Assembly: GCA_048939995.1 (NCBI GenBank)
Contig: JBHLOY010000003.1
Span: 397,345-461,344, forward strand
Source of the DNA: Promethearchaeota archaeon
Lineage (GTDB): Archaea > Asgardarchaeota > Lokiarchaeia > Sigyniarchaeales > SOKP01
Direction: 5' to 3'
DNA length: 64,000 nucleotides
Shown here: positions 14,792-43,899 of the stretch, piece by piece
Layout: every line of letters starts with the position of its first letter
Numbering within the stretch: position 1 is the first letter of the stretch
The notes under the pieces: generated by a model
What the model was told of the DNA's origin: nothing
The model's database searches: none
What the model saw: the letters and a program-made list of their open reading frames with translations, nothing else
Translations under genes and position numbers: made by a program

Positions 14792-15883
14792 ATGAAAATA
14801 ATTGAAATTAGTAATCTTTGCAAAGAATACTATAAAGAAAAGGAATCTTCAATAAGGGTTCTCTCTAATATTAGTTTTTCAGTTAATAAAGCAGAATTTT
14901 TTGTTATTATCGGTCCAAATGGAAGCGGTAAAACTACTCTACTTAGGTTAATAGGCTTGCTTGATTCACCAACAAGTGGAAAAATATATTATAATAATAA
15001 AGATTTAACAAATATTTCACGAAAAGAGAGAGTAAGAATACGAAGGCAATTCTCTTTTGTTAGACAAAAACCGGTAGTAAGGAATACAACTGTATTCAAT
15101 AATATTGCTTATGGTCTTAAGATACGTGGCGTTAAGTTTAATGAATATAAAAAATCTGTAGAGGAAATAATTGAATTTATAGGATTGAAGGGTATGGAAA
15201 ACAAAAATGCACGGTCATTATCTGGTGGAGAAATGCAGCGTGTAGCAATTGCAATGAATTTTATTATTAATCCCGAAATTTACCTATTAGATGAAGTCTC
15301 AGCAAATCTTGATTCAATGAATCTCAAATTATTAGAAGATTTTATAATGAAAATAAAGCAAGAGAGAGGAAAGACTATCATTATGAGCACTCATGATCCA
15401 ATTGAAGCTATAAAATATGCAGATCGTATTGCCGTACTAAATAGTGGACAAATAACTCAAATTGGAACTCCAAATGAGATATTCACCGCACCAAAAGATG
15501 AATTTACAGCTCTTTTTATGGGATATGAAAATATTTTTCATGGATTTGCAAAATTAGATGAATCTTCAGGATTATTACTGGTTAAAGTAAATGATTTAGT
15601 TATAACAGCATCCAGTCAGCAGGAGGGTGAGGTAAAAGTATGCATTCGCCCAGAAAGTATAGGGATAGTTAAAGAGTCTGTGGAGGATACGAGCTATAGA
15701 AATACATTTAAAGGAATCATTGAGAATGTCCGTGAACTCGGTAATATTTGTCATTTAATTGTTAAATGCCAATCTGAAAAATTCTTGATTACAGTAACAG
15801 ATTTATCAAGAAGGAATTTAGCACTAGAAATCAATTCTGAAGTGTTTATCAATTTTAAAGCGACAGACGTTAAAATATTATGA
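14792..15883 (+). CDS. tupC: Tungstate ABC transporter ATP-binding protein with a TOBE domain
   Basis: GPNGSGKT, LSGGEMQR, LLDE and a C-terminal TOBE-like region; operon context. Confidence 0.88.
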   Translation: MKIIEISNLCKEYYKEKESSIRVLSNISFSVNKAEFFVIIGPNGSGKTTLLRLIGLLDSPTSGKIYYNNKDLTNISRKERVRIRRQFSFVRQKPVVRNTTVFNNIAYGLKIRGVKFNEYKKSVEEIIEFIGLKGMENKNARSLSGGEMQRVAIAMNFIINPEIYLLDEVSANLDSMNLKLLEDFIMKIKQERGKTIIMSTHDPIEAIKYADRIAVLNSGQITQIGTPNEIFTAPKDEFTALFMGYENIFHGFAKLDESSGLLLVKVNDLVITASSQQEGEVKVCIRPESIGIVKESVEDTSYRNTFKGIIENVRELGNICHLIVKCQSEKFLITVTDLSRRNLALEINSEVFINFKATDVKIL

Positions 15884-15920
15884 ATAAATTTTTAAGAAAT
15901 ATCAATTTAAATTATTTAAC

Positions 15921-15944
15921 CGTTATGTATCGCGAGTGATATCG
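15921..15944 (+). promoter_or_regulatory. Second ModE-type operator upstream of moaC
   Basis: CGTTAT-N12-ATATCG, located between a TTTAAAT box (15906) and the moaC ATG. Confidence 0.6.
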
Positions 15945-15949
15945 TTAAA

Positions 15950-16384
15950 ATGATTGATATATCTAACAAAGAAACAATTCTTAGGATAGCCACAGCCTCG
16001 GGCGGGATTAAACTAAAAAAAGAAACAATTGATAAGATTAGGAATAACCAAGTTGAAAAGGGAGATGCATTAACTATAGCTAAAATTACTGCTATTAGTG
16101 CAGTAAAAAAAGTTCCTGAATTAGTTCCTTTTTGTCATCCCATTGACATAACAAATGTTGATGTAGATTTTGAGATCGAGGATGAAAAAATAAATGTAAT
16201 ATGTAAAGTTAAGAGTATCGCTAAAACAGGAGTTGAAATAGAAGCTCTAACTGGAGTTAGTATCGCCCTTTTGAACTTATGGGATGTAGTTAAGAAATAT
16301 GAAAAGGATGATAAGGGACAATATCCCACAACAGAAATTTTTGACATAAGTGTTGTAGAAAAAATCAAAAAATGGAACTCTTAG
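15950..16384 (+). CDS. moaC: Cyclic pyranopterin monophosphate synthase
   Basis: [43 protein letters not shown]. Confidence 0.95.
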
Positions 16385-16387
16385 GAT

Positions 16388-17308
16388 ATGAAAGATAAAT
16401 GTAACAGAGAAATTAAGCACATTAGATTTTCTATTACCTCTAAATGTAATTATGATTGCATTTATTGTGATCAAGAAGGTTTTATCCCTAAAACTTCAGA
16501 TTTAACTGTTAAAGAAATCACTAATTTATGTAAAATATTAGCTGAAATACTTAAAGTAACAAGAATTAAGTTTACTGGAGGAGAACCTTTATGTCGAGAA
16601 GAAGTCGTTCAAATAATAAAAAATGTGGCTGATCTGCACTTATACAAAGATATTTCCATAACTACTAATGGATTGCTTTTATATGAAAAAGCAGATGAAT
16701 TATATAAATCAGGCTTAAATAGGATAAATGTTTCATTGGGATCACTCAACCGAGAAGTATATAAATTTATATATGGTTCAGATACTCTAAATAGGGTTTT
16801 GATGGGTTTAAAACTAGCGAAAGAAGTAGGGTTAAATCCAATAAAATTAAATTTTGTTTTAATGAAGGGACTTAATGATAATGAATTAGAGTCTATGTTC
16901 GACTTTTGCGGAAAAAATGGATACATTCTACAATTAATTGAATTACACGAAGTATCAAGTTCAGTAGTAAAGAATGGTGAATTTTATAGTAAATATCACA
17001 TGGATATTAAACCTATCATAGATAAACTTGAATCAAGAGCAAAAAAAACAATAATAAGAGGTTCTATGCAAAATCGAAAAGTCTTCATATTACCTAATTC
17101 AGTAACAATTGAAACAATCACACCTAGTCATGAATCTTGTATGGGCTGCACTAAATTGCGTGTAGGATGTGATGGAAATCTTTTTGGATGTTTATATCGA
17201 TCTGAACTTGGAAAGAATATTAAGGAAGCTCTGAAGAATCATTATTCATTATCCAAATATGAAGAAATTGTCAAACAAGTGGTAGATTCACGAGAGCCTT
17301 ACTATTAA
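16388..17308 (+). CDS. moaA: GTP 3',8-cyclase (radical SAM)
   Basis: RFSIT..CNYDCIYC, TGGEPL, TTNG, C-terminal CMGCTKLR...GCL. Confidence 0.93.
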   Translation: MKDKCNREIKHIRFSITSKCNYDCIYCDQEGFIPKTSDLTVKEITNLCKILAEILKVTRIKFTGGEPLCREEVVQIIKNVADLHLYKDISITTNGLLLYEKADELYKSGLNRINVSLGSLNREVYKFIYGSDTLNRVLMGLKLAKEVGLNPIKLNFVLMKGLNDNELESMFDFCGKNGYILQLIELHEVSSSVVKNGEFYSKYHMDIKPIIDKLESRAKKTIIRGSMQNRKVFILPNSVTIETITPSHESCMGCTKLRVGCDGNLFGCLYRSELGKNIKEALKNHYSLSKYEEIVKQVVDSREPYY

Positions 17309-17334
17309 CAAATATTAAAATATGAATTGAAATT

Positions 17335-17613
17335 ATGAAAGTAGAAGTTCTATATTTTGCGGAATTTAAGGAGATAACAAGAAAAGAGAAAGAGGAATTT
17401 AATTTATCTAGTGAAAATTTACTGGACCTATTAAATTTATTATTTGATAAATATAAGCTAAAAGATTTAATTTGGGATGAAAGATGTCAAAAAATACATG
17501 ATATGATTTCAATTATAATAAATAACCAATCTATTCAAGAGAAAAATCCTTTATTAATTAGTTTAAAGAATGGGGATAAAGTTGCTTTTTTATTACCAGT
17601 ATCAGGAGGGTAA
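17335..17613 (+). CDS. moaD: Molybdopterin synthase sulfur carrier (MoaD/SAMP ubiquitin-like)
   Basis: VEVLYFA...LKNGDKVAFLLPVSGG with C-terminal GG. Confidence 0.9.
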   Translation: MKVEVLYFAEFKEITRKEKEEFNLSSENLLDLLNLLFDKYKLKDLIWDERCQKIHDMISIIINNQSIQEKNPLLISLKNGDKVAFLLPVSGG

Positions 17614-17619
17614 AATCTA

Positions 17620-18063
17620 ATGAAAGGTGGGATAAAAATTAAATCTGGGATATATAATAAAGGAGAAATTGAATTAGAAAGCATAATTAATTCTGTTAAG
17701 GCAAATCCCAAAATAAAGGAAGCTGGATCTATCCATACTTTTACTGGAATTGTAAGGAATAGTTCTAATAATGGCAAACCAGTAATTGGAATGAAAATTG
17801 ATGCATATGATGAATTAGCCAGTAAAAGTATAACTGATATTTGTGAAAGATTGAAGAGAATAAACGGAATTATAGATATTAAAATTATTCATTTAAAGGG
17901 AGATTTTAATCTTTCTGAAGATTTAGTTTATGTTGTTGTAGCATCTGCACACAGAAAAGAAGGGTTTGAGGTTATTAAAAAAGCGATTGAAATGTACAAA
18001 AAAGAAGTAGCAGTTTGGAAGAGAGAAGATTTTAATGATGGAACATCAGAATGGATTCATTAA
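17620..18063 (+). CDS. moaE: Molybdopterin synthase catalytic subunit
   Basis: GSIHTFTGIVR, VVVASAHRKEGF, VWKRE...SEWI. Confidence 0.92.
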   Translation: MKGGIKIKSGIYNKGEIELESIINSVKANPKIKEAGSIHTFTGIVRNSSNNGKPVIGMKIDAYDELASKSITDICERLKRINGIIDIKIIHLKGDFNLSEDLVYVVVASAHRKEGFEVIKKAIEMYKKEVAVWKREDFNDGTSEWIH

Positions 18064-18105
18064 ATTGATTTAGAAAATACTAAATTATGAGTTTTATATA
18101 CAAAA

Positions 18106-19335
18106 ATGAAATTTCTAAAGACTATTAGCGTGGAAGAGTTTAGAACTATACTTAATTCAATAGAAAAGATTACTCCCTCCGATGAACTAGTCTCTTTAGA
18201 AGATAGCTTTAAGAGAATAATTTCTAAAGACATAGTTAGTCGAATAAATGTTCCACATTTTAGAAAGTCACGGATGGATGGGTATGCTGTAATTGCTGAG
18301 GACACATTCGAAGCAGAAGAAGACAATTTAGTCGAGCTTGAATTAATTGACACAATAAAAGCGGGAGAAATCCCTCAAAGGAAGCTAAAAACCGGTCAAT
18401 GTTCTTATGTAGCAACAGGAGCTGCAATCCCAGATAATTCTAATGGAGTAGTAATGGTCGAGTTCACAGAAAAATTAATAAATAATAAAATTTTAATTTC
18501 TAAGGCTATAACCCCTGGAACTCATATTATAGAAATCGGACATGATATAAAAAAGGGGGATATCATTGTGAAAAAAGACAAATTGATTGATTTAGCTACT
18601 TTAGGGATTTTTGCTTCATGTGGTATCAGAGATGTACCTGTTTATGAGAAACCAATCGTTAGTCTTATAAGTACCGGTAATGAATTAGTAAATCAAGATA
18701 CAGAAGAATTAGAAATTGGAAAGATATATGATGTAAATTCAATCCTTCTAAAAAAGGCTTTAGAAAACACAGGAGTTCATGTGAATTTTTTAGGCGTAGT
18801 GAGGGATGATTATGAAGATTTGAAGAATGCTATGGATACTGCCTTAGAAAATAGCGATATTATCATATTATCAGGTGGAACATCTAAAGGAGAAGGTGAT
18901 TTAGGACCAAGACTTTTAGAACAATATAAGGATATCGAAATTGAAGTACATGGAGTCAAAATTAAGCCAGGAAAGCCAATAATTTTTGCTAAACTAAAGG
19001 AAAAAATAATCTTTATTTTGCCAGGATATCCAACCTCTGCGTTAAGTTGTTTTTTCCTTTTTATAGATAATTTCTTAAGGAGAATGTCAGGTTATCCTTT
19101 AAGAGACCGATTTTCAAAAGAACTAGAAATTGGAGAGAGAATTTATAGCACCCTTGGCAGACATGAGTTTAAAGCCGTACAAATGCAGGAAGTGGACGGA
19201 AAAAAGAAAATATTTCCTATAAAGACGGGATCAGAAGCGATAAGTACAATGTTCTATGCAGATGGATATATAGAGATTGAGGAGTTGGAATCAGTTATAG
19301 AAAAGGGAGATAAAAGAATGATATATTTCTTCTAA
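18106..19335 (+). CDS. moeA: Molybdopterin molybdo/tungsto-transferase MoeA
   Basis: SRMDGYAV, ATGAAIP, STGNEL, SGGTSKG, KPGKP, LPGYP. Confidence 0.93.
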   Translation: MKFLKTISVEEFRTILNSIEKITPSDELVSLEDSFKRIISKDIVSRINVPHFRKSRMDGYAVIAEDTFEAEEDNLVELELIDTIKAGEIPQRKLKTGQCSYVATGAAIPDNSNGVVMVEFTEKLINNKILISKAITPGTHIIEIGHDIKKGDIIVKKDKLIDLATLGIFASCGIRDVPVYEKPIVSLISTGNELVNQDTEELEIGKIYDVNSILLKKALENTGVHVNFLGVVRDDYEDLKNAMDTALENSDIIILSGGTSKGEGDLGPRLLEQYKDIEIEVHGVKIKPGKPIIFAKLKEKIIFILPGYPTSALSCFFLFIDNFLRRMSGYPLRDRFSKELEIGERIYSTLGRHEFKAVQMQEVDGKKKIFPIKTGSEAISTMFYADGYIEIEELESVIEKGDKRMIYFF

Positions 19336-31200: not shown

Positions 31201-32982
31201 ATGTATCGAAGTTTAATAAAAGAAAAACGTCAACGGAGATATTCGGATCGTGAGTTATTTAGCAGATATATTAAAAGATTAGTTCCCTTTAAAAAGAATA
31301 TGCTAATTGTTGCATTATTTATCTTTATAGCAACAATAGCAGAAATTCTTGGTCCTTTAATTATAGGATTTACTGTTGATCAGTTAGCCATCATATCCAA
31401 TCAATTTATCTTGATACTATCTCTTGCTCTAAGCTATGTTTTCCTTTCTACTATTCAATGGATTATGTTCTTTTTACGGAGAAGAGAATATGGTAAATTT
31501 GTACCTTTTTTTCTAGAATATTTACGGATGGATATTTTTGAAAAATTACAAACACAAGATATAGGTTTTTTTGATAAATATCAAAGTGGGGCTTTGAATA
31601 CAAGAGTATCAAATGATGCGTTAGATTTTGGTGACATAACAGCGCTTATTTCAGAAACAATAGGAAATTTTCTTGTAAGTATATTAACCTTTACTATCTT
31701 AGCGCTTCTAAATCTCTTTTTAGCATTAATCGCGTTAATCGCAGTGCCAATTGTATTACTTTTAATGTTTTCTTTGCGAAAAATAGCACGAATAGTCAGT
31801 AGAGCATATAGAAAAGCAATAGAGAAGGTTAATAATGCTATGGTAGAATCAATTGAAGGAATTCATGTCTCTAAAAGTTACGGTCAAGAAACTACAATCT
31901 CAAATCAATTTAGTGATATAAATAAGGAATACTTTCGCTCAACTTTTAAATTAACAGCTATTACTCATTTGTGGAGGCATATATTGAACTTAATAGCCTC
32001 AATTACTATATTGATTATAATTTTTTATGGAACTCAAATTTTTTTAGAGGGTTATTTAACTACGGGCATAATTTTCACATTCATTCTCTATCTACAGAGC
32101 TTTTTTAGACCGATAATTGTTCTTGCTACATTTTTTCCACAATTAAGTACTGGAATGGCTGCATATGAAAGAATTTTAGAAATACTAGATTCTAAACCTA
32201 TGGTTGAACAAAAAATTAATCCAATTAATGTGGGAGAATTAGAAGGCAAAATTGAGTTTGAAAATGTTAATTTTCGTTATGGAGATAATCACTGGATTTT
32301 CAAGGATTTTAATCTTAAAATACCTAAAGGAGAGAAACTGGCAATTGTAGGTCATACTGGCGCAGGTAAAACATCATTGGTGTCATTATTAGCCCGATTT
32401 TATGAATTTCAAGGCGGAAGTATTAAAATTGATGGCATTGATATCAGGGATATGACTTTAGATACCTATAGAAAAAATATCGCTATGGTTCAACAAGAAA
32501 TATTCTTATTTTCAGGTACTCTAGAAGAAAACATCCGTTATGGAAAACGCAATGCTTCAAAGGAAGAATTGGAGAGAGCAATTAGAGCTGTACATGGCGA
32601 GGAAATAATTAAATATTTACCTGATGGTATTAAAACCAGAGTGGGTGAGAGAGGAAAAGGATTATCTATGGGGCAACAGCAAATTATTAGTTTTGCAAGA
32701 GCAATTTTAAGTGATCCAAAAATTCTTATTCTAGATGAGGCAACTTCTAGTGTTGATGCGTATACAGAGGCAATAATCCAAGAGGCTCTTCAAGAGTTAA
32801 TGTTAAATCGTACTTCTATAATAATCGCTCATAGATTATCAACTGTTCTTAATGCTGACCGTATAATAGTCATGGATCATGGAAAAATTATTGAAGAAGG
32901 AACTCATGCATCATTAATTGCACAAAATGGAAAATATGCTGAACTTTATAAACAATATTTTGAACATCAGAGCTTAAATTAA
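31201..32982 (+). CDS. ABC exporter half-transporter (TMD+NBD), partner subunit
   Basis: GHTGAGKT, degenerate signature LSMGQQQ, ILDEATSSVD; TM287/288-type heterodimer arrangement. Confidence 0.92.
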   Translation: MYRSLIKEKRQRRYSDRELFSRYIKRLVPFKKNMLIVALFIFIATIAEILGPLIIGFTVDQLAIISNQFILILSLALSYVFLSTIQWIMFFLRRREYGKFVPFFLEYLRMDIFEKLQTQDIGFFDKYQSGALNTRVSNDALDFGDITALISETIGNFLVSILTFTILALLNLFLALIALIAVPIVLLLMFSLRKIARIVSRAYRKAIEKVNNAMVESIEGIHVSKSYGQETTISNQFSDINKEYFRSTFKLTAITHLWRHILNLIASITILIIIFYGTQIFLEGYLTTGIIFTFILYLQSFFRPIIVLATFFPQLSTGMAAYERILEILDSKPMVEQKINPINVGELEGKIEFENVNFRYGDNHWIFKDFNLKIPKGEKLAIVGHTGAGKTSLVSLLARFYEFQGGSIKIDGIDIRDMTLDTYRKNIAMVQQEIFLFSGTLEENIRYGKRNASKEELERAIRAVHGEEIIKYLPDGIKTRVGERGKGLSMGQQQIISFARAILSDPKILILDEATSSVDAYTEAIIQEALQELMLNRTSIIIAHRLSTVLNADRIIVMDHGKIIEEGTHASLIAQNGKYAELYKQYFEHQSLN

Positions 32983-33062
32983 GCATAAAATTATATATTT
33001 CAGATTCAGATAATTCTATTGAAAAACTCGACTTAAAAAGTTTAATCTATAAAAATTGATTT

Positions 33063-33869
33063 ATGAGCGAATGGAAAAAGGCTATTGAATTTATTAATCA
33101 AAACGGAGTTTTACTTGATAGGCTCAGAATTAAAAATTTATTCAAACTATCTTATAAGAAAAGTGAAGTTGAAGAAATATTATCTGACTATCAATTTCCA
33201 AATGGAAGTTGGGATTATAAATCTTCTGAGGAAAATTTAGATCGAATAGGTTCATTAGGAGGAACTATTCATTGTCTAAGATGGATAAGGGAATTTCATC
33301 TTGAAAAATCAGACAAAATGAAATTAACTTTACCCTTCTTGCAAAAAATTCAAAAAGACGATGGTTCTTTCTATGAAACTCCAGCTAAACTTAATCATTC
33401 ACCGCAAAGGTGGCTTAATGAAGATCGCATTATTGATACATTCTATTTTACAGCAGCAGTACCTATGCGGCTTTTTTCATTAGGATATAAAAAAAGTCCC
33501 ATCATTCAACCCTCTTTAAATTGGTTAAAGTTAAAATGGAATGATTGGAATATTGTTGCTGGAACTTGGTATGGTGCTTGGGCATTATTATGTTTAAATT
33601 CTTATAATATTGGTCTTGATACGTCTCTTTATAATCATTGTAGACAATATACTTTAGATTGGTTACCAAGACTGCCCGCACAACCTCTTACTTGGCTCTT
33701 AGATGTCCTAATTGCTGCAGAATACTCCTTAGATGATGAAATTGTTAAGAAAGGTATTAACCATCTGAAATCTTTACAAAATTCAAATAGTCTATGGAAT
33801 GATAAGAAATATTCAACAATAGAGACTACAATAACCGCAATTCGAATTATTGAGTTATTAAACCATTAG
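33063..33869 (+). CDS. Prenyltransferase/squalene-cyclase-repeat (alpha-alpha barrel) protein
   Basis: QW-like repeats QFPNGSW, QKDDGSF, QNSNSLW. Confidence 0.65.
   Translation: MSEWKKAIEFINQNGVLLDRLRIKNLFKLSYKKSEVEEILSDYQFPNGSWDYKSSEENLDRIGSLGGTIHCLRWIREFHLEKSDKMKLTLPFLQKIQKDDGSFYETPAKLNHSPQRWLNEDRIIDTFYFTAAVPMRLFSLGYKKSPIIQPSLNWLKLKWNDWNIVAGTWYGAWALLCLNSYNIGLDTSLYNHCRQYTLDWLPRLPAQPLTWLLDVLIAAEYSLDDEIVKKGINHLKSLQNSNSLWNDKKYSTIETTITAIRIIELLNH
33819..33866 (+). repeat. Left copy of the direct repeat flanking valS
   Basis: Core ACCGCAATTCGAATTATTG (33834-33852) is identical to 36478-36496. Confidence 0.8.
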
Positions 33870-33939
33870 TTAAACTTTTTTTTTGAATTTGTATCAAAAT
33901 TTTATTATGATTGGTTCCTACCCCGTTTTAACTCTAAAC

Positions 33940-36309
33940 CTAATTCGTTATATTGTGCATATTCGTTAATTCATCGGAAAACGGTTCAAGTTCTTGAGGG
34001 ATTTCCAACTTAATAGGTGATCTGAGTGAAATTTTTTGTTCATTTTTTTTCTTCCAAACCATCGAGTTAAACTCCAACAAAGGTTTGCTGTATTTCAAAT
34101 AATCTTGGACGTCATCTGGTTTGTACAGCTCTGGAAATGATTCATCGTGAATATCAATATTATATAAATCCATACAGATACGATATGTGAAGAAAGGGAT
34201 AATTGGGGATAGTAATTTCAAAATAACTTTCAATACATGATGAAGAGATGCTATAGTTGCCGGATCTCCTTGATAAGCCTTATCCTTTGCGATCTCAATG
34301 AAATGGGATGCAAATTTTCCCATTGCAAAAATTCTAACAGAGTCAGCAGGAACTTTGAAGTTAAATTCATCATATCCCTTACCTGCAGTTCTGATGAGTT
34401 GATTTACTTCTGCCAGTATCCATTTGCTAAGGGGTGAAAGCTCAAACTTATCTAGATCGCTGGAATTATCCTCGAATAATGAAACGAACCGGCAAAGATT
34501 AAAAATTTTAGTTATTACCTTCTGGGTTGCAGCAATCTTTCTCTCGTCAATACGAAAATCTTCACCTACATTGCATACACTAGCAGCCCAGAACCGAAAC
34601 ACATCTGCTCCATATTTTTCTATGATTTCGTCCGCATCAATTATGTTTCCTAATGATTTACTCATCTTTCTTCCTCGAGCATCGAGCCCCATCCCTGAAA
34701 TCCACACGTGTTCAAACGGTTTTTTGCTTAGTAAAAGCCAGTTTTTCAACATCGTGTAATAAAGCCAAGTTCGAATAATATCTTTACCCTGTGGTCGGAT
34801 GGAGCATGGATGATGCATCATGAAGAATTCTGGGTCTTTAGAATATTTCAAGGTATAAAGGTTACTATTTGAGCTATCCATCCATGTATCAAAAGTCTTT
34901 TCTTCTCCAACATAACCAGCCGTATTACCACATTTTCTACATGGTAGTGTCGCAAAAGGTGGATCCTCTCGCCATGGTTGGACATATAAACCTTTCGGGG
35001 CTAGATGGATCTCACCGCACTGCTTACATTTCCAGAGGGGTATTTCTGTATGGTAATATCGTCTTCTAGAAATGGGCCAGTCAATTGAGATACGTTCTAT
35101 CCAGTCAAGGAGCCATTGCTTATTTTGGTCAGGATGAAATTGCATTTCACCAACCATGTGCTTTAGATCCTCAACAAATTCTAGTTGTTTAATATAGTAT
35201 TCCTTTAGCATGACAATTTCAAGACTATCACCAGATCTTTCACAAATAGGATAACGGTGTGGAACTTCTTCCACGTTTTCCAGTAGCCCCCATCCTTCTA
35301 AATCGTCAACGATATACTCGCGTGCTTTCTTTGTTGTTTGTCCAATATATTTTCCTGCAACCTCAGTTAATAACCCATGTTCATCTAAAGCAATAACTGG
35401 CTCAAGATTCAACTCACGGAATAGAACAATGTCAGTTTGGTCTCCAAACGAACAGATCATTAAAGCTCCAGTTCCGTATTCCATGCTAGCGGATGGATGT
35501 GTTATAATGGGAACTGTTCGATCATATAACGGTAATTTGGCTAGTTTTCCTACGAATTTTTTATGTCGGTCATCATCGGGGTGTATCAAGATAATCTGGC
35601 AAGCGCAAATTAATTCTGGTCGAGTGGTTGCTACTAGGATATACCCGTCTTCATCGTCTAATTCTTTACTTTCGATTTGAAACTTTATATAATATAGGTT
35701 AGTCATTCCTTCCTCGTAATATATCTCCGCATCTGCGATTGTAGTCTGGCATCCAGGACAAAAATTATTCGGACGATAATCTTCAACAACTAGTCCTTTC
35801 TCGTAAAGTTCAATAAAAGTACGCTGAGTACAAGCACGATATTCATCACTATCAGTCATATAATAATCCTGGTAATCAGGGGAGAGTCCAATTCGTTTAG
35901 CAATTCTTGTCATATCATCAGAAATCTTTGTAATCTCCTCACGACAGCGGGTAATAAAATCAGCCCGATCAAATTCAAACAAACTTTTTTTCTCCTTCTT
36001 CTCTATAACGAGTTCGATGTTGATACCATTGCGATCTAATCCCCAAGGGAATAAAACATCGTATCCCCGTAAACGTTGGATTCGGGCTATCATATCAATC
36101 AAGGAGTAGTGGGCTACAGCACCAATATGCCACTTTCCAGAGGGATATGGTGGAGGAGTATCAATGCTAAAGAAAGGTTTTGACTTATCTCTCTCATGAA
36201 AGCTAACCTTATCATAGATATCTTTTTCTTCCCACTCTTTTAGGATCTCAAACTCTTCTTTAAAATTCCATCGTTTCAATGAGAGTTTAGACTTGTATTT
36301 ATTGGACAA
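33940..36309 (-). CDS. valS: Valine--tRNA ligase (archaeal type)
   Basis: FSIDTPPPYPSG.WHIG, ATTRPEL, GTGALM, DWPISRRRYY, FDTWMDSS, RPQGKDIIRTW, KMSKSLGN. Confidence 0.95.
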   Translation of the reverse strand: MSNKYKSKLSLKRWNFKEEFEILKEWEEKDIYDKVSFHERDKSKPFFSIDTPPPYPSGKWHIGAVAHYSLIDMIARIQRLRGYDVLFPWGLDRNGINIELVIEKKEKKSLFEFDRADFITRCREEITKISDDMTRIAKRIGLSPDYQDYYMTDSDEYRACTQRTFIELYEKGLVVEDYRPNNFCPGCQTTIADAEIYYEEGMTNLYYIKFQIESKELDDEDGYILVATTRPELICACQIILIHPDDDRHKKFVGKLAKLPLYDRTVPIITHPSASMEYGTGALMICSFGDQTDIVLFRELNLEPVIALDEHGLLTEVAGKYIGQTTKKAREYIVDDLEGWGLLENVEEVPHRYPICERSGDSLEIVMLKEYYIKQLEFVEDLKHMVGEMQFHPDQNKQWLLDWIERISIDWPISRRRYYHTEIPLWKCKQCGEIHLAPKGLYVQPWREDPPFATLPCRKCGNTAGYVGEEKTFDTWMDSSNSNLYTLKYSKDPEFFMMHHPCSIRPQGKDIIRTWLYYTMLKNWLLLSKKPFEHVWISGMGLDARGRKMSKSLGNIIDADEIIEKYGADVFRFWAASVCNVGEDFRIDERKIAATQKVITKIFNLCRFVSLFEDNSSDLDKFELSPLSKWILAEVNQLIRTAGKGYDEFNFKVPADSVRIFAMGKFASHFIEIAKDKAYQGDPATIASLHHVLKVILKLLSPIIPFFTYRICMDLYNIDIHDESFPELYKPDDVQDYLKYSKPLLEFNSMVWKKKNEQKISLRSPIKLEIPQELEPFSDELTNMHNITN

Positions 36310-36462
36310 TCAAATCACAACAATATTCCTTGTATATATTTAAAATTTTCTTCGAGTGTGTGATATGTATAGTTTAATTTTAATCAATTTTAATACTTTT
36401 TCACAAAATTTTCAATAAAATCAGACTCCGAATCGACCTTTCTGTCAAATTAATAGCTTCCT

Positions 36463-36510
36463 ATCGAAACTTCAATTACCGCAATTCGAATTATTGGATC
36501 GTTAGACCGT
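36463..36510 (+). repeat. Right copy of the direct repeat flanking valS (displaced 3' end of the 33063..33869 gene)
   Basis: Encodes IETSITAIRIIGSLDR versus IETTITAIRIIELLNH at the end of the upstream gene. Confidence 0.8.
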
Positions 36511-36534
36511 CAAGGCCAATTCTTTCTAAAACTT

Positions 36535-36933
36535 TCAAAATTTGATAATATAGGGTTTCTTTCCCCTTTCAATTCTAATTAGATTTTCATACGCTTTCCT
36601 ATGATGAGTCCCTTGCTCAACCCATTTTTTATATTCGTCACATGGAAAATCTCCACATTCAGAACAATTATTTAATTGTTTCTTATCAATGCAGCATATC
36701 AAAAGAGAGCAATTTGAAGCCCAATGGAAATCTGTTCTATCACTTCGGCAACCCTTACAATAATCTTTATTCTCTATTATGTTGGAGACGGTTTGATCTT
36801 CTCGATACCATCCTTCAGATTGAAACCATTCCAGTACTTCCTTTCCAGATTTTTCATCCCAAGGTAAATTTAATAACGGGCATGAATTGCATGTTAGTCC
36901 ACATACGCTAATGTTTAGATCTTCTTTCTTCAT
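36535..36933 (-). CDS. DUF3795-family Cys-rich protein
   Basis: CGLTCNSCP...CKGCRS...C...CC...NNCSECGDFPC. Confidence 0.85.
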   Translation of the reverse strand: MKKEDLNISVCGLTCNSCPLLNLPWDEKSGKEVLEWFQSEGWYREDQTVSNIIENKDYCKGCRSDRTDFHWASNCSLLICCIDKKQLNNCSECGDFPCDEYKKWVEQGTHHRKAYENLIRIERGKKPYIIKF

Positions 36934-36970
36934 CTTACTTTTAAAATACTCATCCCAAATAAATATTAAA

Positions 36971-38245
36971 TTATAAAATTGTTATTTTTTGAATTTTTTC
37001 TCTTGAGTTTCTTACATCCAATAGTTTGGAACAGTTATCAATACTTAAAATATCAGCCCAATCATTCAATTCTTTAGCGTTTCGATCTGAAACTTTCTTA
37101 GATTCAATTAATTCATGATATTGGGACTCCATTTTTATTATTGCATTTTTATTACCGGCTCCATTCCTTCTTAAATTATTGTATTTTGCAAGATTAATAT
37201 CTGACTGACTATTCCTATATTCACTATCTTCCAATGAATTATGAATGAAATAATTGTGCCATATCTTATTTTCAATTGGTGGAATTGTTAAAATCGATAA
37301 TGTATCACTCAATTTTCCGTATAGATTATTTCTTAAATAATTTCCTACACTTTCCTCAAAACCAAATAGAGAAAGAAAGATAATTTGGGGATAGATATGA
37401 TTATATAGGTTAAAGTCTTTCTTATACACTAAGTGAGTAAATCTCTTTACTTCCTCTAATAACTTTAACATCTGAATTAATTTTAATGGTGCCTTCTTCT
37501 TATGGGCAAATACAAACGTAATTTTAAGATTAAGTTTTTTTTCATTTAAATTCTGTGAGTTATTAAGAGAGTTTCCTGAATATTTTTCTTCTTCACTAAT
37601 GATTAAATCAGCAATTCGCTGATAGTAAGCATTCTCTAATGCAAAATCATAATTTCTAAATACTTTTAAAGAGTTATTTTTAACATTTATAAACTTATTT
37701 TCTAATAGCTCAATATATTGGCGATATATATCATACCATATTTCCCAAGAACCATCAATATCACTTAAAGAGAAAGGATATTTTCTTAAACCATCATTAT
37801 AATCATAAATTTCTTGCAATGAATCTAACAAATTCATTAGTATCTCTTTTTCAATTTCAATCAATTGATTTAGTAAACTCTTTTCTTCTATTCGCTTAAT
37901 TTTTAAATTTGAAAATACATAATTTTTCTCATTTTCTTTCCTAAGCTTGGTTAAATTATATAAAGTCTTTCCTAATGGTTTAATAGTCTTATTGGATGAA
38001 TTATGATCCTTAAATATTTGATTGTTAAATAAAGCTAAAATAGAAAAAGAAGTTCGATTTTTTGATTTATTAACGGAACCACGTACAATAACGGATTGAT
38101 CTTTTCTATTTATTCCTATAATTAATAAATTAAGATCATCTGTATTAGAATTCTTATCAATTTCAAAGTTGGGTTTAATTTTATTTTTTATGTTCGAAAA
38201 AATATCATTTAATCTAATTACTCTTTCAATTGTATGGACTCTCAT
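36971..38245 (-). CDS. Hypothetical protein, possibly with a degenerate restriction-endonuclease-like (PD-(D/E)XK) C-terminal domain
   Basis: 424-aa very AT-rich ORF; ADLII...FVFAHKK...IIFLSLFGF pattern. Confidence 0.55.
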   Translation of the reverse strand: MRVHTIERVIRLNDIFSNIKNKIKPNFEIDKNSNTDDLNLLIIGINRKDQSVIVRGSVNKSKNRTSFSILALFNNQIFKDHNSSNKTIKPLGKTLYNLTKLRKENEKNYVFSNLKIKRIEEKSLLNQLIEIEKEILMNLLDSLQEIYDYNDGLRKYPFSLSDIDGSWEIWYDIYRQYIELLENKFINVKNNSLKVFRNYDFALENAYYQRIADLIISEEEKYSGNSLNNSQNLNEKKLNLKITFVFAHKKKAPLKLIQMLKLLEEVKRFTHLVYKKDFNLYNHIYPQIIFLSLFGFEESVGNYLRNNLYGKLSDTLSILTIPPIENKIWHNYFIHNSLEDSEYRNSQSDINLAKYNNLRRNGAGNKNAIIKMESQYHELIESKKVSDRNAKELNDWADILSIDNCSKLLDVRNSREKIQKITIL

Positions 38246-38404
38246 TCAATTTTCACTTACTTTTTTGATTTTAAAAATTTTTTTAAACATTAAAGAAGGG
38301 AACGAAATATTTAATTACTCGTTATTTTACTCTACTTCCTCAACTATTTGAAGATCTACTGTTCATATTATAAAATTAATGATAAACTCCTTTGCCCATA
38401 CTCT

Positions 38405-38626
38405 TTATATATAAGAGAAAATATAAATCGAATCTGTTAAATTAAATTCTTCAATCTTAATATCATATATTAATCCATTTTTATATGAAAGAGATAATGG
38501 TATCTTGATTACAATTTTATATTCATCTAAATATAAGTTATTATAATAAACCCTTTCATTTTTATTAAAGTCAATAAACTTATTCAAAAAATTTTTGGAT
38601 CTACTATTATTCTTATTTTTATTCAT
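38405..38626 (-). CDS. Small hypothetical protein (doubtful)
   Basis: 73-aa ATG ORF in an extremely AT-rich region. Confidence 0.3.
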   Translation of the reverse strand: MNKNKNNSRSKNFLNKFIDFNKNERVYYNNLYLDEYKIVIKIPLSLSYKNGLIYDIKIEEFNLTDSIYIFSYI

Positions 38627-39053
38627 TGAAACATCTCTAATTCAAGTTAAATCTGGTGATTTTCACCATATTTTCTTAAATGAAACGAAATAAAGTTTTT
38701 GAGTTTTCGTTATCAAAATGGCAAATAATGATCTAAGAAATATGATTAAAAGAGTAAATCAGAAATTTCAAATTTTTAAGAATTTCAAATTTCTTTACTG
38801 TTTGAAGTAATATAGTTAAAAATAATATTTAAATTTATCGCTAAATAATTCTAAATTCTTAAATCCTAACAGAGGTAAAACTTTTATTTATTAAAGTTAC
38901 AGAACTGAACTCTATTTAACTTTTCCTTTTAATTTTCTCCTTATCTGACTAAATCTTTTCTCTAATTATATTATTTTTCAATTTCATTTGAATTTGGAAT
39001 AAGAAAAGTATAATAACATTTTTATCTGTAGTTTCAAATCCACTTAAGCCTAT

Positions 39054-39479
39054 TTAAAAGATGCCTTTAGATAAAACTTTCTCAATTTCTAAATCTAATT
39101 CATCTGTAGGGGTCTTAACACACCCTATTTTTGCAATTACTTGAATTCCAGTTGGTTTCATAATTTTTGCGATATCATTACAAATTTTAGGAGGACCCGT
39201 TTTAGATGTTCCTGTAGCAAATACGATAAGTTTTTTTCCTTTCAGATTAAAGTTAGTAATTTTTTGTAGGAATTCTTTATACTCCTTTGCTATCTGAAAA
39301 TAGTGTGTAGGAGAACCCAAACATATGATCTCAAAATCATTAAAAGAATTATTTTGTTCAAAATTCTTATCTTGATAAATCTGAACTATTATATGAAGCG
39401 TTTCTAACCTATTTTTAATTTTTTCTGCCAAAATTTTAGTATTTCCTGAACGCGTATGAAATATTATAACTGCTTTCAT
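39054..39479 (-). CDS. Flavodoxin-like protein
   Basis: FHTRSGNTKILAE phosphate loop, LGSPTH, VFAT. Confidence 0.88.
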   Translation of the reverse strand: MKAVIIFHTRSGNTKILAEKIKNRLETLHIIVQIYQDKNFEQNNSFNDFEIICLGSPTHYFQIAKEYKEFLQKITNFNLKGKKLIVFATGTSKTGPPKICNDIAKIMKPTGIQVIAKIGCVKTPTDELDLEIEKVLSKGIF

Positions 39480-39599
39480 TTTTATTGGTTTACTCTTTAA
39501 AAAATTTAAATTTATTCTATCCTTCTTACTTAAATAAAATTTTGTATCTTAAATATATTAATCCAGATTTTCAGTAATGTATAAAATTCGCAAAAATTA

Positions 39600-39742
39600 T
39601 TATCTAAAAATTTCTTTTTGAGCTCTTTCTGCCTGATCCTTCACAAAATCAATGAAATCTAATTATTTTCCAAAAATATTTCATCTTCCTTGGAAGCAGG
39701 GATTTCCTCTGGTTGGGATTTATTTTTAATTATTATACTCAT
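39600..39742 (-). pseudogene. Remnant of a paralog of the 39855..40343 regulator (N-terminus, then a stop and deletion)
   Basis: MSIIIKNKSQPEEIPASKEDEIFLENN* versus MNKNKSKPEENPASKEDEIFK; near-identical DNA over ~55 nt. Confidence 0.7.
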
Positions 39743-39854
39743 TTTAAAGATTCGAATATTTAATAAATTATAGGAGTACAAGTTTTTAAAGAAAGGGTGC
39801 ATTAAGAGAGGGAAATTTTAAATTTATTTGATAAAAAGCTTTTCGATTTGATAG

Positions 39855-40343
39855 CTAAGTGTAGCGGCTTTTTAGTTGTCCAAGAATAATCAAATTGATT
39901 GTACAAATTACATTTATCGTGATTTGAATTATTAAATTGGAAAGAGTTTTAGGGGAAATGAACCAAAAAGCAAGAGGAGTTAATATTTCAGCAGCTATCC
40001 AACAAAGCAGTGTTATTACATAAGCATAAACGAAATTTCTTCTATATCGTGACATTTTTATAGATTGGTCTGTTTTTGTAAGAAGCAATAATGCAGCTCT
40101 TCCAATATCAGAGAAGGAATATTTAGTATTTTTTTGAATTATAAATTGCTTCATGCTTTTGAGGTGATAGGAAAGAGTTGGACTATCAATTGGTTCTAAT
40201 CCTCTTTTTATTTCTGAGAAAGTCAAATCCTTATTACCGAGTACCTTTATAATACTCCGACGTGTATCATGTGTTAATATTTTAAAAATCTCATCTTCCT
40301 TAGAAGCAGGATTTTCTTCAGGTTTAGATTTATTTTTATTCAT
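39855..40343 (-). CDS. Winged-HTH (ArsR-like) regulator with two C-terminal TM helices
   Basis: IFKILTHDTRRSIIKVL...LTFSEIK...SPTLSYHLKSM, then hydrophobic segments. Confidence 0.8.
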   Translation of the reverse strand: MNKNKSKPEENPASKEDEIFKILTHDTRRSIIKVLGNKDLTFSEIKRGLEPIDSPTLSYHLKSMKQFIIQKNTKYSFSDIGRAALLLLTKTDQSIKMSRYRRNFVYAYVITLLCWIAAEILTPLAFWFISPKTLSNLIIQITINVICTINLIILGQLKSRYT

Positions 40344-40742
40344 CTTAATTATTATAACCCTTTTATTACTTATAAAAATTAATATCGTTGATATTTGACC
40401 GAAATAAGTTATTGAAATTTATCCATTTATATAAATTCCAAAAATATAATAATAATTTATGATAAAAATTCAATATATTAACCAAAAAAATTCGATGTTA
40501 GCCCTATTTTTATTAATCCTGATTATCATGATAAATTTTTCTATATTCAGAATCCCGATTGATTTAGCAAATCAATTTTTTTGATAGTCAACACTTCTAT
40601 ACCATGTTTGGGATAGTCAAACTCCCTTTACTAAACGGTTCTACACTTACTAGGTTAAATATTTTTGAAATCCTAATAAAATTAAATATAAATGTGAATC
40701 AAACATGAAAAAAAATAACGAAATAAGAAGAGGTGTTTATGA

Positions 40743-41561
40743 GTGATAAATAATGAAAATATAAGATACTCTAGCAGCGAATCAGTCCATATTTCGGATA
40801 ATTCAAATGCAATTGAAGTCATTGATTTGAAAAAAGTATATAAAGATAAAAGACGTGTTGAAGAAGTTAATGCTGTTGATGGTATATCGTTTTCAATAAA
40901 GAAGGGTGAGATATTTGGTCTATTAGGACCAAATGGAGCAGGAAAAACTACCACAATAAATATTTTAAGTGGTCTAATAGAGCAAACCGAAGGAGAAGCT
41001 TTTGTTGGAGGTTATTGCGTAAAGGAGGAACTTCAGGACATCAAAGAAATAATTGGTGTTTGTCCTCAACAAGCAGCAGTTTATCCATATCTTAATGCTA
41101 AGGAAAATATTGAGTTTTTCGGGAAATTACATCTTATGGATAAAGAAGAAATAAACAGAAGGGCTGATAAATTTTTAGATTTATTAAGTTTATCTAAAGC
41201 AAAGGGTAGAAAAGCTAAGAACTATAGTGGGGGAATGTTAAGACAATTAAATCTTATTATAGCTTTAATAAGTGACCCTCCCATTTTGTTTTTGGATGAA
41301 CCAACAGTTGGAATGGATCCACGAGTCAGGCGAATAACCTGGAAATTCATTAGCTCTTTAAAGGAATCGAATAAAACAGTAGTTTTAACAACGCATTATA
41401 TAGAAGAAGCGGAAGAGCTTTGTGATCGAGTTGCTATAATTGAATATGGTAAATTAATTGCGATAGGATCACCAAAAAATTTGATCAGGGAACATACTGC
41501 AAAAGACTTGGAAGAAGTATTTTTAAAAATTACAGGAAGAAGAATTATGGAGGGAGTTTAA
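40743..41561 (+). CDS. ABC-2 type exporter ATP-binding protein
   Basis: GPNGAGKTT, YSGGM, LDEPTVGMDP, TTHYIEEAE. Confidence 0.93.
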   Translation: MINNENIRYSSSESVHISDNSNAIEVIDLKKVYKDKRRVEEVNAVDGISFSIKKGEIFGLLGPNGAGKTTTINILSGLIEQTEGEAFVGGYCVKEELQDIKEIIGVCPQQAAVYPYLNAKENIEFFGKLHLMDKEEINRRADKFLDLLSLSKAKGRKAKNYSGGMLRQLNLIIALISDPPILFLDEPTVGMDPRVRRITWKFISSLKESNKTVVLTTHYIEEAEELCDRVAIIEYGKLIAIGSPKNLIREHTAKDLEEVFLKITGRRIMEGV

Positions 41562-41563
41562 AA

Positions 41564-42313
41564 ATGAAAAGTAAGAGAATTTTCGCTATTCTGAAAATAC
41601 AATATAAAAATCTTATAAGGTCACCAGCCCCACTATCTATAATACTTTTACTCCCTATAGTATTAACATTGATATTTAGCCTGATGTTTGGATCGGTGAT
41701 CATAGAAGATATGGGAAAGAGCGTATTTGAATTACTTGTTCCTGGTTTATATGCCTTTAGTGCTCTTTTTATGGCAATACCAGTTGCTTTATCATTTTCA
41801 GAGGACCGAGAACAAGGTTTGTTAAAAAGAATTAACACGACTCCAACGACTGGGACAGAGTTCATAGTAAGTCACCTATTATCAAATATAACCATGTCAA
41901 TCATTCAAGTAGCAATTATTGCCGTTCTTACTTTTCTAATGGGATATCGTGGATCCACCGAGGGAACCTTCCTTGCGTTTGTCTTAATGGTTATCTTTTC
42001 CATGTCTACTATTGGTTTTGGATTAATAACGGCAACTATCGCAAAAAGTGCCAAAGCAGCTGGAGGAATAATTCAAATTTTCGTGCTCCCTCAACAGATG
42101 CTTGCCTCTGGGTTATATCCCTTGCCATCTGAAGCTAAGGCAGTTAGTATGTTCATGCCTTTACATTATGTGTCTGATGCTTTAACTCTCCTCTCTAACG
42201 GTGTACCGCTAATTGATTTAAGAATTTGGGGTGATTTGTTAATACTTATAATCTTCAGCCTTGTAATTATTAGCATAGGAATCTTATTGTTTAAAAAGTA
42301 TAGCAAAGTATAA
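41564..42313 (+). CDS. ABC-2 type exporter permease
   Basis: Six TMs, EDREQGLLKRI.TTP, SGLYPL...MPLHY. Confidence 0.9.
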   Translation: MKSKRIFAILKIQYKNLIRSPAPLSIILLLPIVLTLIFSLMFGSVIIEDMGKSVFELLVPGLYAFSALFMAIPVALSFSEDREQGLLKRINTTPTTGTEFIVSHLLSNITMSIIQVAIIAVLTFLMGYRGSTEGTFLAFVLMVIFSMSTIGFGLITATIAKSAKAAGGIIQIFVLPQQMLASGLYPLPSEAKAVSMFMPLHYVSDALTLLSNGVPLIDLRIWGDLLILIIFSLVIISIGILLFKKYSKV

Positions 42314-42567
42314 TTTTTTATTTTCTTTTTTTTTATTAAATAAGTGTGTTTAAAGAAAAAAAAAAAATCTATTCTTCGATTTTAAGTTTTCTTTCCTTTA
42401 AAACCATTTTTAATTTAAAATCATTAAGAATATTTGTGAATCGATATCTTCAATAGAAAATTTATATTATTTTTTCTATAAATGTTAAAAATTTATACTC
42501 TTTTAACTTTTTAATAAGTAAGAGTATTATTATAATTATATTCTACTACTTTTTAAGCGAAAAAAGA

Positions 42568-43899
42568 TTGGTTCGGCCTCCGACTGAAGGAAATATTTGT
42601 CTTAGATGCAAAGGCTCAAGGTTATTATGCGGTAAAAAATCTTGTCCTATTCTTCTAAAGAAATCAGTTTTAAAATCAATGGTACCATTTAAACTGGATA
42701 CAGGGATAAGGGATGTTGAAATCTTCGGTGCAAGTCCTCCAGGAGTATTTGTAGGGCATTTCAATTATCCTAATGTATATATTGGACCACTCGTTCCTTA
42801 TCAAGAATTTCATTTAAACTTAGACATTTCGGATAACTATATTCTTGATGCTCCAGAACTTTGGTTTGGAAAGGAAATGACTGATGTCATAAGATATAGA
42901 AGTAGTTTGGTTCGTAATAATTTTAAGTCAAATGTAAGGATTGGTCAAACTAGTAGAAAAAACACTCCCCCAATCAGAGTGCAAAGACTATTAGATACTT
43001 CACAAGAGTTAGCTATGGCAGCAAAACCAGTAGATACTGAAACAAAATTAAAAAAAATGAACTTTAGAATGTTAATGGATAATCATGCTCCACCACTTGG
43101 ACCTACTGGTATGACTGAAAAAATCAATATTACTGAGAATGTAAAAGTCCATCCAAAAGTTGAATATTGCGTATCAGACACAGATTTAAAAGCAACTGAG
43201 GCTGTATCTGATTATTTATATTTTGATGGGCATGTCCCAGAATCAACAATAAGGAGAGTTTTTTCTGCGGGATTACTTGGCCAAAAGTCAAATAGAAGAC
43301 TCGTCCCAACTCGTTGGAGTATAACAGCTGTTGACGATATCATTTCAAAGGCTTTAATTGAGGAAATCAAAAAATTCCCCGAGATAAACCAATTTCAAAT
43401 TTTTGAATCAACATACCTAGATAATCATTTCAAAATTTTACTTTTTCCTGGAAGCTTTATGTATGAAATGAATGAAGTTTGGGCTCCAAATACGTTATGG
43501 AATATCTCTCTTGATGGTAGTCCTCGGAAATTAAAGCCTCAGATAATGACAGATTATGAATTTTATCGCGGAAGGAAGAATTATGCAAGTAATATTACAG
43601 GGGCATATTATGCTGCTCGGCTCTCAGTATGCGAATATCTTTATAATATTAGACGGCAAGCAAGAGTTCTCATTTTCAGAGAAGTTTCAGGAGGTTATCT
43701 TGTTCCTCTAGGAGTATGGGTAATTAGAGAGACAGTTCGGAATGCTATGTTAGCGAGTGACCCTGTTATCATAGACAATTTTGATGATTCTATCTATAAA
43801 ATGGCAGATGGCTTTATGGTAGATTATAAATTCTGGAGAAATAGCAGTAAAATAATTAATTATATCAAAACACAGAAAACAATCAAAGATTTTTTATAG
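42568..43899 (+). CDS. nreA: Archaeal DNA repair protein NreA
   Basis: CLRCKG..LCGK..CP, SPPGVFVG..NYP, RRLVPTRWSITAVDD, GAYYAARL, PLGVWVIRE; C-terminal PIP box QKTIKDFL. Confidence 0.92.
   Translation: MVRPPTEGNICLRCKGSRLLCGKKSCPILLKKSVLKSMVPFKLDTGIRDVEIFGASPPGVFVGHFNYPNVYIGPLVPYQEFHLNLDISDNYILDAPELWFGKEMTDVIRYRSSLVRNNFKSNVRIGQTSRKNTPPIRVQRLLDTSQELAMAAKPVDTETKLKKMNFRMLMDNHAPPLGPTGMTEKINITENVKVHPKVEYCVSDTDLKATEAVSDYLYFDGHVPESTIRRVFSAGLLGQKSNRRLVPTRWSITAVDDIISKALIEEIKKFPEINQFQIFESTYLDNHFKILLFPGSFMYEMNEVWAPNTLWNISLDGSPRKLKPQIMTDYEFYRGRKNYASNITGAYYAARLSVCEYLYNIRRQARVLIFREVSGGYLVPLGVWVIRETVRNAMLASDPVIIDNFDDSIYKMADGFMVDYKFWRNSSKIINYIKTQKTIKDFL

Follow-up and report, generated by a model that had tools for sequence, protein, structure and literature searches.

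A horizontally acquired valine–tRNA ligase gene between two copies of a gene junction in a Lokiarchaeial genome

The stretch of DNA considered here, called the window, comprises 64,000 nucleotides from a Promethearchaeota archaeon of the Lokiarchaeia (assembly GCA_048939995.1, contig JBHLOY010000003.1, positions 397,345 to 461,344), and its subject is a valine–tRNA ligase gene, valS, that separates two neighbouring genes. Coordinates refer to the window unless a contig is named, and the genome is designated G000. To the left lies geneA (33063..33869, plus strand), an intact open reading frame (ORF) of 268 amino acids resembling prenyltransferase/squalene-cyclase repeat proteins (its match to PF13243, SQHop_cyclase_C, is weak, with an E-value of 6e-5, below the cut-off). 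To the right is an intact gene for a DUF3795 protein (36535..36933, minus strand; PF12675, E-value 5.7e-14). Between these two target genes is an inserted segment of about 2.52 kb (33939-36462), in which valS (33940..36309, minus strand) is the sole real gene. It is accompanied by the 153 bp upstream of it (36310..36462, minus strand), a promoter region that came in with valS. This upstream region has no match elsewhere in the genome and no Rfam match, and just the first 20 nt before the start codon are common to the copy in another genome, G133.

The valS gene encodes an intact archaeal-type valyl-tRNA synthetase (ValRS) of 789 amino acids. It scores 801.7 bits against the NCBIfam model NF009687 (PRK13208; cut-off 738) and 617.3 bits against TIGR00422 (cut-off 612.1), and it aligns to the T. 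thermophilus ValRS 1GAX. The motifs of class I synthetases and of the CP1 editing domain (WHIGAV, KMSKS, TTRPEL and GTG..GD..D) match those of all relatives in its clade. Judged by these matches, the product is an ordinary member of the archaeal-type ValRS family, and it is predicted to charge tRNA-Val. An earlier reading made from the sequence only had raised the idea of an inhibitor-resistant copy, which finds no backing: the score against alt_ValS (NF000540) is 436.6 bits, below the cut-off of 900, and no biosynthetic cluster lies nearby.

That sequence-only reading had also noticed that the last ~16 codons of geneA recur beyond valS around an identical 19-bp core. Both observations hold, and the repeat is longer than was claimed. 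The end of geneA, ATAGAGACTACAATAACCGCAATTCGAATTATTGAGTTATTAAACC (33819-33864), has a second copy at 36463-36508 with 80% identity. In translation, the last 16 codons of geneA read IETTITAIRIIELLNH before the stop, compared with IETSITAIRIIGSLDRQ at 36463-36513, where the stop has been lost; several of the differences between the copies sit at third codon positions. Within them, an exact 19-mer, ACCGCAATTCGAATTATTG, occurs at 33834-33852 and 36478-36496. A second block follows in the same register (33894-33937 and 36535-36578, 73% identity) and corresponds to the last part of the DUF3795 gene, which is convergent with geneA. Gapped local alignment unites both blocks into a repeat of ~120 bp (33819-33938 and 36463-36579; 117-120 bp), in which homology begins abruptly at 33819/36463. 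The alignment score is 60, as against a mean of 22.8 (standard deviation 2.6) and a maximum of 40 in 500 shuffles.

Together, the blocks run from the 3' end of geneA across a spacer into that of the DUF3795 gene, so that what was duplicated is the entire junction at which these convergent genes meet tail to tail, with stop codons originally only about 10-25 bp apart. Each copy of the junction contains one working gene end and one decayed end. In the left copy (33819..33938), the genuine end of geneA (33819-33869) is followed by a spacer containing a run of nine T residues and then by a decayed DUF3795 3' end on the minus strand (33894-33938), which has an internal stop. The right copy (36463..36579) consists of the decayed geneA 3' end (36463-36513), a spacer and the true DUF3795 3' end (36535-36579). 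Read on the minus strand, the DUF3795 C-terminus is intact in the right copy, as RIERGKKPYIIKF followed by its stop, and survives in the left copy as the remnant RVKTG-stop-EPIIIKF-stop. Neither the 19-mer (with up to two mismatches) nor the 120-mer has a further occurrence in the 3.75-Mb genome, which rules out both as a dispersed motif or a family of attachment (att) sites.

The base composition of valS sets it apart from its surroundings, in keeping with the contrast spotted at the outset. In a sliding window, GC content is 0.37-0.40 within the gene and 0.28-0.33 alongside it. At third codon positions (GC3), the value is 0.33, compared with 0.222 +/- 0.026 for the 835 ORFs of at least 400 amino acids, placing valS at the 99.8th percentile. 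In six further class I synthetase genes of the genome (those for IleRS, both LeuRS, MetRS and CysRS, and a second valS), GC3 is 0.22-0.25, and that of geneA, 0.208, is native-like.

An empty site, which the sequence-only reading had proposed seeking in close relatives, exists in G010, a member of the same genus whose IleRS is 90% identical to that of G000. The two genomes share ABC2 (31201..32982, plus strand; 88% identical), an ABC transporter gene to the left of geneA. On contig C78 of G010, this transporter gene is followed by only the last 46 codons of geneA and then directly by the DUF3795 3' end. A single stretch of G010 aligns to both 33745-33868 and 36463-36778, forming an undivided junction without valS, of which the left side matches the left copy and the right side matches the right copy. 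This undivided junction implies that the insertion took place in the G000 lineage after its split from G010. Another member of the genus, G019, has ABC2, 47 bp, the DUF3795 gene and then a gene of 424 amino acids, and lacks geneA and valS. The DUF3795 orthologue of G019 is 78% identical over its full length, and that of G010 is 84% identical over the C-terminal 80 amino acids. In addition, a metagenome contig from run X8 (depth 5.8) joins position 33028, in the spacer behind ABC2, to position 36557, in the DUF3795 3' end. Along 107 positions at the ABC2 3' end, it shows just 5 differences from the window (all within 32922-32997) and thus derives from a close relative; given the join, that source also lacked geneA and valS, as in G019.

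A three-way comparison with G010 over 107 ungapped columns assigns 20 private changes to the left copy, 7 to the right copy and 5 to G010. The left-copy changes fall mostly where the DUF3795 frame is no longer required. The run of nine T residues (33876-33884), just 3' of the geneA stop, is found in the left copy only and is absent from both the right copy and G010; it may have arisen after the insertion as a terminator. Together, the left-copy changes and this run fit decay plus terminator re-tuning. Of the 19-mer, 18 of 19 bases are present in G010. Fourfold degenerate sites of ABC2 are 47% different between G000 and G010, and decay of the remnants by 10-23% places the age of the insertion at 0.4 to 1 times that of the split between these genomes.

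The arrangement recurs in independently sequenced DNA. G000 is a metagenome-assembled genome (MAG) with an estimated contamination of 5.3%, and the contig that holds the window is 461 kb long. The stretch is present in runs of eight studies (of sediment, mangrove and soil), and its junctions are bridged at 99% identity or more by contigs of four independent studies. The left junction is covered by contigs from X5 (32500-34076), X6 (33523-34049) and X9 (33439-34011), and the right junction by contigs from X5 (35587-37500), X6 (35819-36378 and 36354-37231) and X8 (36399-36629). The right 19-mer varies within the species, since strain X5 has C>A at 36479, C>T at 36482 and C>T at 36487. On a conspecific X5 contig of 1.9 kb, 7 of the 11 differences are packed into 92 nt of the right copy (36479-36570), where two equal the G010 state, and the adjoining 153 bp of non-coding DNA shows none. 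This cluster may be a patch of recombination or gene conversion. The 2644-nt joint that would mark an excised form was not seen among the contigs of four runs, which drop rare variants.

Three types of ValRS occur in the order to which G000 belongs: type A (789-857 amino acids), to which the window protein belongs; type B, divergent archaeal (866-870); and type C, bacterial (917-941), which matches PRK05729 with 1099 bits. At an E-value of 1e-200 or lower, type A is found in five of 154 genomes of the order. These are G000, the only holder among 42 genomes of its genus (none of the 41 other species has it); G133 (MAG DZ3M.28), the single holder among 54 genomes of another genus in the same family; and three genomes of family f2. 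In the ValRS tree, the window protein falls into a starred clade of four rows with G133/P0002 and P0003, mutually 84-85% identical (P0002 is 99.6% identical to the G133 copy, L044). The sister of this clade comprises the f2 proteins and unnamed Promethearchaeota sequences, at about 60% identity, and the window protein lies apart from types B and C of its own genus. Between G000 and G133, the ValRS proteins are 84% identical, while the IleRS proteins are only 70% identical. Contrary to what the sequence-only reading had said would speak against transfer, codon usage is atypical, the protein does not group with the ValRS of its own genus, and the gene is not syntenic in relatives. The empty site, the atypical GC3, the patchy distribution and the tree support the conclusion that the valS of the window is a horizontally acquired xenologue.

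The other holders of this gene keep it in quite different surroundings. A metagenome contig, Ga0209536_100035271, carries a further type A copy that is 82% identical, and the neighbours of valS on this contig and in G133 are unlike those in the window. The DNA similarity of both copies to the window ends ~20 nt before the start codon and a few nucleotides from the stop. More generally, the three other lineages holding this valS have no flanking sequence in common with the window, and no flanking repeats beyond chance surround the G133 copy. Type A valS has entered several lineages at different places. A scan of viral contigs for valS yielded no relative. In G133 and Ga0209536_100035271, valS has a GC3 of 0.30-0.33 and its neighbours 0.20-0.27, whereas in family f2 the GC3 of valS equals that of its neighbours. 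The donor was thus probably a Promethearchaeote with a somewhat higher GC3, likely about 0.30-0.33.

Types B and C are themselves mixed. Within one genus, some species have type B, others type C, and G007 and G023 have both, which indicates that ValRS has been repeatedly exchanged in the group. The types also differ in the HIGH motif, in which every type A protein has Ala at the fourth position. Among type B genes, the motif reads LHIGQ in G000, G010 and G019 and LHMGH in the others, and type C of G018 and G021 has HLGQ.

The sequence-only reading had left it open whether valS was a xenologous replacement or a second copy, and the genome decides for the latter. The native, vertically inherited gene, valS-2, is of type B and is split over two contig ends, C23:2-388 (minus strand) and C5:2-2299 (plus strand), with an exact overlap of 77 nt. 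Joined, the parts form one open gene of about 869 amino acids. Its product is 87% identical to that of G010 and groups in the tree with those of G010 and G019, as the species do, on a branch of ordinary length; it is 36-38% identical to the type A protein. As valS-2 is intact, the window valS is a second copy and not yet a replacement, and with both copies intact the genome is at the two-copy stage that must precede xenologous displacement. G010 has type B only, and G133 appears to have type A only, so that G000 represents the redundant stage between these two states. Two LeuRS-like genes are also present in G000, at C38:40735-43635 (966 amino acids) and C23:45088-47889 (933 amino acids); from their sequences, the former looks archaeal-type and the latter bacterial-type.

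Similar structures occur elsewhere in the genome. Whole-genome self-BLAST at an E-value of 1e-4 or lower does not detect the valS repeat, and flank-to-flank alignment was used instead: 700-nt flanks of each of 2270 ORFs of at least 200 amino acids were aligned locally, with a score of at least 45 taken as a repeat. Such repeats flank 5 of 53 ORFs with a GC3 of at least 0.29, compared with 23 of 1935 with a GC3 below 0.25, where most are tandem paralogues. Beyond valS, at least two GC-atypical genes are flanked by duplications of gene ends, or three with a shorter 5'-end case. One is a cassette on contig C14 (15315-18223) with the same architecture as that of valS. It contains a multicopper oxidase gene (15815..17827; 670 amino acids, GC 0.39-0.47, GC3 0.355) whose nearest named relative is from a Bathyarchaeota MAG (69%). 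The true 3' end of the upstream gene, terminating in KFQVKDAEDILKLINKKIFVPIVIAS and a stop (15315-15471), is matched by a remnant, SQVKDAEDILKLIRKKIFVPIVITS and a stop (18071-18223). The copies are ~95% identical over the first ~93 nt; the tail beyond ~110 nt, which may be a chance extension in AT-rich DNA, was not used. No empty-site control exists for this cassette, the upstream gene having only paralogue-level matches (67-70%) in the genus. A 224-amino-acid ORF (GC3 0.304) on C17 (375615-376704) is bracketed by 145-nt repeats (112/145), part of which is the 3' end of a neighbouring gene. On C38 (14255-15368), the repeats around a 234-amino-acid ORF (GC3 0.291) are 37 nt long (33/37) and correspond to the start of a small-GTPase gene, at its 5' end.

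Three similar loci, C31:68145-71781, C17:342054-343568 and C21:1983-5296, enclose genes of normal GC3. In each, one repeat copy falls within a gene, in most cases at the end, and its partner falls in non-coding DNA past the next gene; both insertion and decayed tandem duplication are possible origins. The repeats at the cassette-like loci are unrelated in sequence and vary in length from 37 to 160 bp. Because the sequences are unrelated, the lengths varied and the donors different, a recipient-side, recombinase-independent process that duplicates its target is favoured. The recurrence points to a route of insertion that is both integrase-independent and duplicative.

On balance, it seems somewhat probable that a foreign valS segment was inserted after the split from G010, and that the junction was duplicated by recombination or repair in the recipient rather than by an integrase acting at an att site. 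The duplication would have been made during integration by the recipient's own machinery, with fill-in of a staggered break or template switching at a broken replication fork as candidate routes. The left-hand gene, geneA, retained its original 3' end together with what lies downstream, the right-hand DUF3795 gene did likewise, and the redundant half-copies are decaying. The insertion may have survived because the duplication spared both neighbours truncation and the loss of a terminator. Several points weigh against this account. The left copy is far more diverged than the right, including the part that still encodes the C-terminus of geneA, and within the last six codons of geneA it has changed as much as the dead right copy. 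This excess is also compatible with incoming DNA that brought a diverged junction of its own. A perfect 19-bp match inside ~75% identical arms resembles a crossover point, with a chance probability that we estimate at roughly 10%. The decay of the remnants is similar in magnitude to the per-lineage neutral divergence from G010, so the insertion could predate the split, with G010 having lost valS by recombination between the repeats. Among the cassette-like loci, an empty-site control exists for the valS insertion only.

Duplication by the recipient has to be weighed against several other explanations, of which site-specific integration is the one that the sequence-only reading had favoured and that we consider unlikely. 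It would require a small circular element with valS and an attP mimicking the geneA/DUF3795 junction, a crossover at the 19-bp core, and an integrase acting in trans or from an element later deleted; attL would then be host-left/element-right and attR element-left/host-right. The exact 19-mer, with a palindrome inside it, lies within diverged arms as this would predict. To the right of the core, the left copy is most diverged and the right copy is closest to G010, the pattern anticipated for P' and B'. The target gene also regains its 3' end, a classical signature of integrative elements. However, the insert is a single gene, and no integrase is present in the window, as had been noted before. 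The genome as a whole has one tyrosine recombinase match (PF00589, on contig C7), presumably a chromosomal Xer-type enzyme, with no match to serine recombinases (PF00239) and none to PF07282 (TnpB) above the cut-off. Moreover, the core varies in strain X5 and occurs nowhere else, the three other holder lineages have different flanks and no repeat, the remaining cassette-like loci show unrelated repeats of other lengths, and the scan of viral contigs gave no relative. On these grounds, attL/attR-like integration is a weak reading, while the two other parts of that proposal, horizontal transfer and a complete geneA 3' end, stand. A single crossover of the Campbell type, or homology-facilitated recombination, we likewise hold to be improbable; here, incoming DNA, circular or ends-in, already had valS beside a ~120-bp copy of the junction. 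The architecture is that of a pop-in product, and in the part that still codes, the divergence between the two copies exceeds the prediction of a simple clock. The region is also a hotspot of recombination: content past ABC2 differs in every relative, the close relative represented by the X8 contig (~95% over 107 nt of the ABC2 3' end) lacks geneA and valS, and X5 has its cluster of differences. However, this explanation only places the first duplication in a different genome, and the known donors of the valS clade lack such a junction; geneA being rare in the genus, few donors could carry the anchor.

It is also conceivable, at a distinctly lower level of probability, that the insertion is older than the split between G000 and G010, and that the clean junction of G010 is secondary, valS having popped out by recombination between the repeats. 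The extent of remnant decay is compatible with this age, and such recombination would recreate precisely the hybrid junction that G010 has. Against it stand the absence of type A from all 41 other species of the genus, a valS GC3 still far from the genomic value, and the lack of both geneA and valS in G019. An artefact (an assembly chimera or contamination), or a native valS made GC-rich by conservation or high expression, can scarcely be credited. The estimated contamination of the MAG might suggest the former, and the higher GC1 and GC2 of conserved genes in AT-rich genomes the latter. However, contigs of four studies bridge the junctions and the window contig is long, the anomaly lies in GC3 and six other synthetase genes are normal, and the site is empty in G010. 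GC3, the patchy distribution, the separation from the native type in the tree and the bridging contigs refute both artefact and vertical inheritance.

The insertion site lies within a variable region, as the gene content 3' of ABC2 is different in every same-genus relative examined. ABC2 is the conserved left anchor of this region, with orthologues 80-89% identical in seven genomes of the genus (including G047, G010, G021, G019, G007 and G046). In the interval between ABC2 and a gene of 443 amino acids (42568..43899; 95% identical in G010), corresponding to 33000-42500 of the window, gene content likewise varies per relative, which suggests a flexible island; the part from 37400 to 39600 is very rich in AT (GC 0.20-0.25). 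Rfam and tRNA scans of the region gave only a sub-threshold match to PhrS inside geneA, and no tRNA.

Foreign synthetases have long been known to move. Earlier work by Wolf and Koonin and by Woese et al. reportedly dealt with the transfer and displacement of synthetase genes, and, as in such cases, a foreign synthetase has here entered a genome that already had one. In a survey of synthetases, ValRS was among the most stable, with few paralogues, and dissimilar pairs of synthetase paralogues were mostly attributed to horizontal gene transfer (Chaliotis et al. 2017, PMC5388404). At the present locus one can see the scar left by insertion, an unoccupied site in a sister species and the intermediate with two copies, and the order has three types of ValRS side by side. 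The acquisition of valS is thus a case of well-known horizontal synthetase mobility. Less common are the completeness of the footprints gathered at a single locus, the duplication of ~120 bp across a junction with no integrase, and the apparent recurrence in the genome.

Several known systems leave comparable structures. Integrative elements of bacteria and archaea, at tRNA genes and protein genes, target the 3' ends of genes and restore them, leaving attL and attR as direct repeats. The valS locus is alike in its bounding direct repeats, one of which completes the target while the other is redundant, and in an exact core within less similar arms. It differs in having no integrase, a cargo of one gene, a repeat that spans two convergent gene ends, and no att site common to the holders; furthermore, its core varies within the species, and other loci in the genome have unrelated repeats. 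Campbell-type pop-in events place an insert between direct duplications of a homologous segment and require no dedicated recombinase. Their end product is the same as the valS locus, but an incoming molecule with the junction is needed, and none is seen among the known donors. Target-site duplications made by transposons and casposons have a short, fixed length (a few to ~15 bp), and these elements possess terminal inverted repeats and depend on a transposase or casposase. As in the present case, a copy of the target lies on either side of the insert. In contrast, the duplications here measure 37-160 bp (117-120 bp at valS), and the insert has no inverted repeats at its ends and no gene for such an enzyme. 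Among Asgard archaea, the described mobile elements include the integrated viruses of Heimdallarchaeum and its aloposons, large elements that bear giant genes and use tRNA genes as integration sites (PMC8813620). These elements are likewise a route by which foreign genes enter Asgard genomes, and an aloposon origin of the valS insert is ruled out, as nothing of that kind is found at the locus.

The replacement of essential translation genes by foreign ones has been widely inferred from trees, while the intermediate steps are rarely seen. This locus unites a scar, an empty site in a sister species, codon usage that is still foreign, an intact resident gene, and a relative from another genus that apparently lives on the foreign type alone. 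The mixture of three ValRS types in one order, one of them bacterial, matters for the use of synthetases as markers of Asgard and eukaryote ancestry. A broader and more speculative possibility, which we put forward tentatively, is that Lokiarchaeia capture single foreign genes by a host-driven, integrase-independent process that places them between or next to resident genes and duplicates 40-180 bp of the target, leaving the ends of the neighbours preserved, and that this process gave rise to the valS, oxidase and other cassette-like loci. There may be added selection for insertions that leave neighbouring genes whole, because convergent genes are so closely spaced. If this were true, such capture would be a main physical route of the heavy influx of genes into Asgard genomes. 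If the gene-end duplications do reflect one integrase-free route, they would provide a sequence signature for tracing the entry of foreign genes into Asgard genomes.

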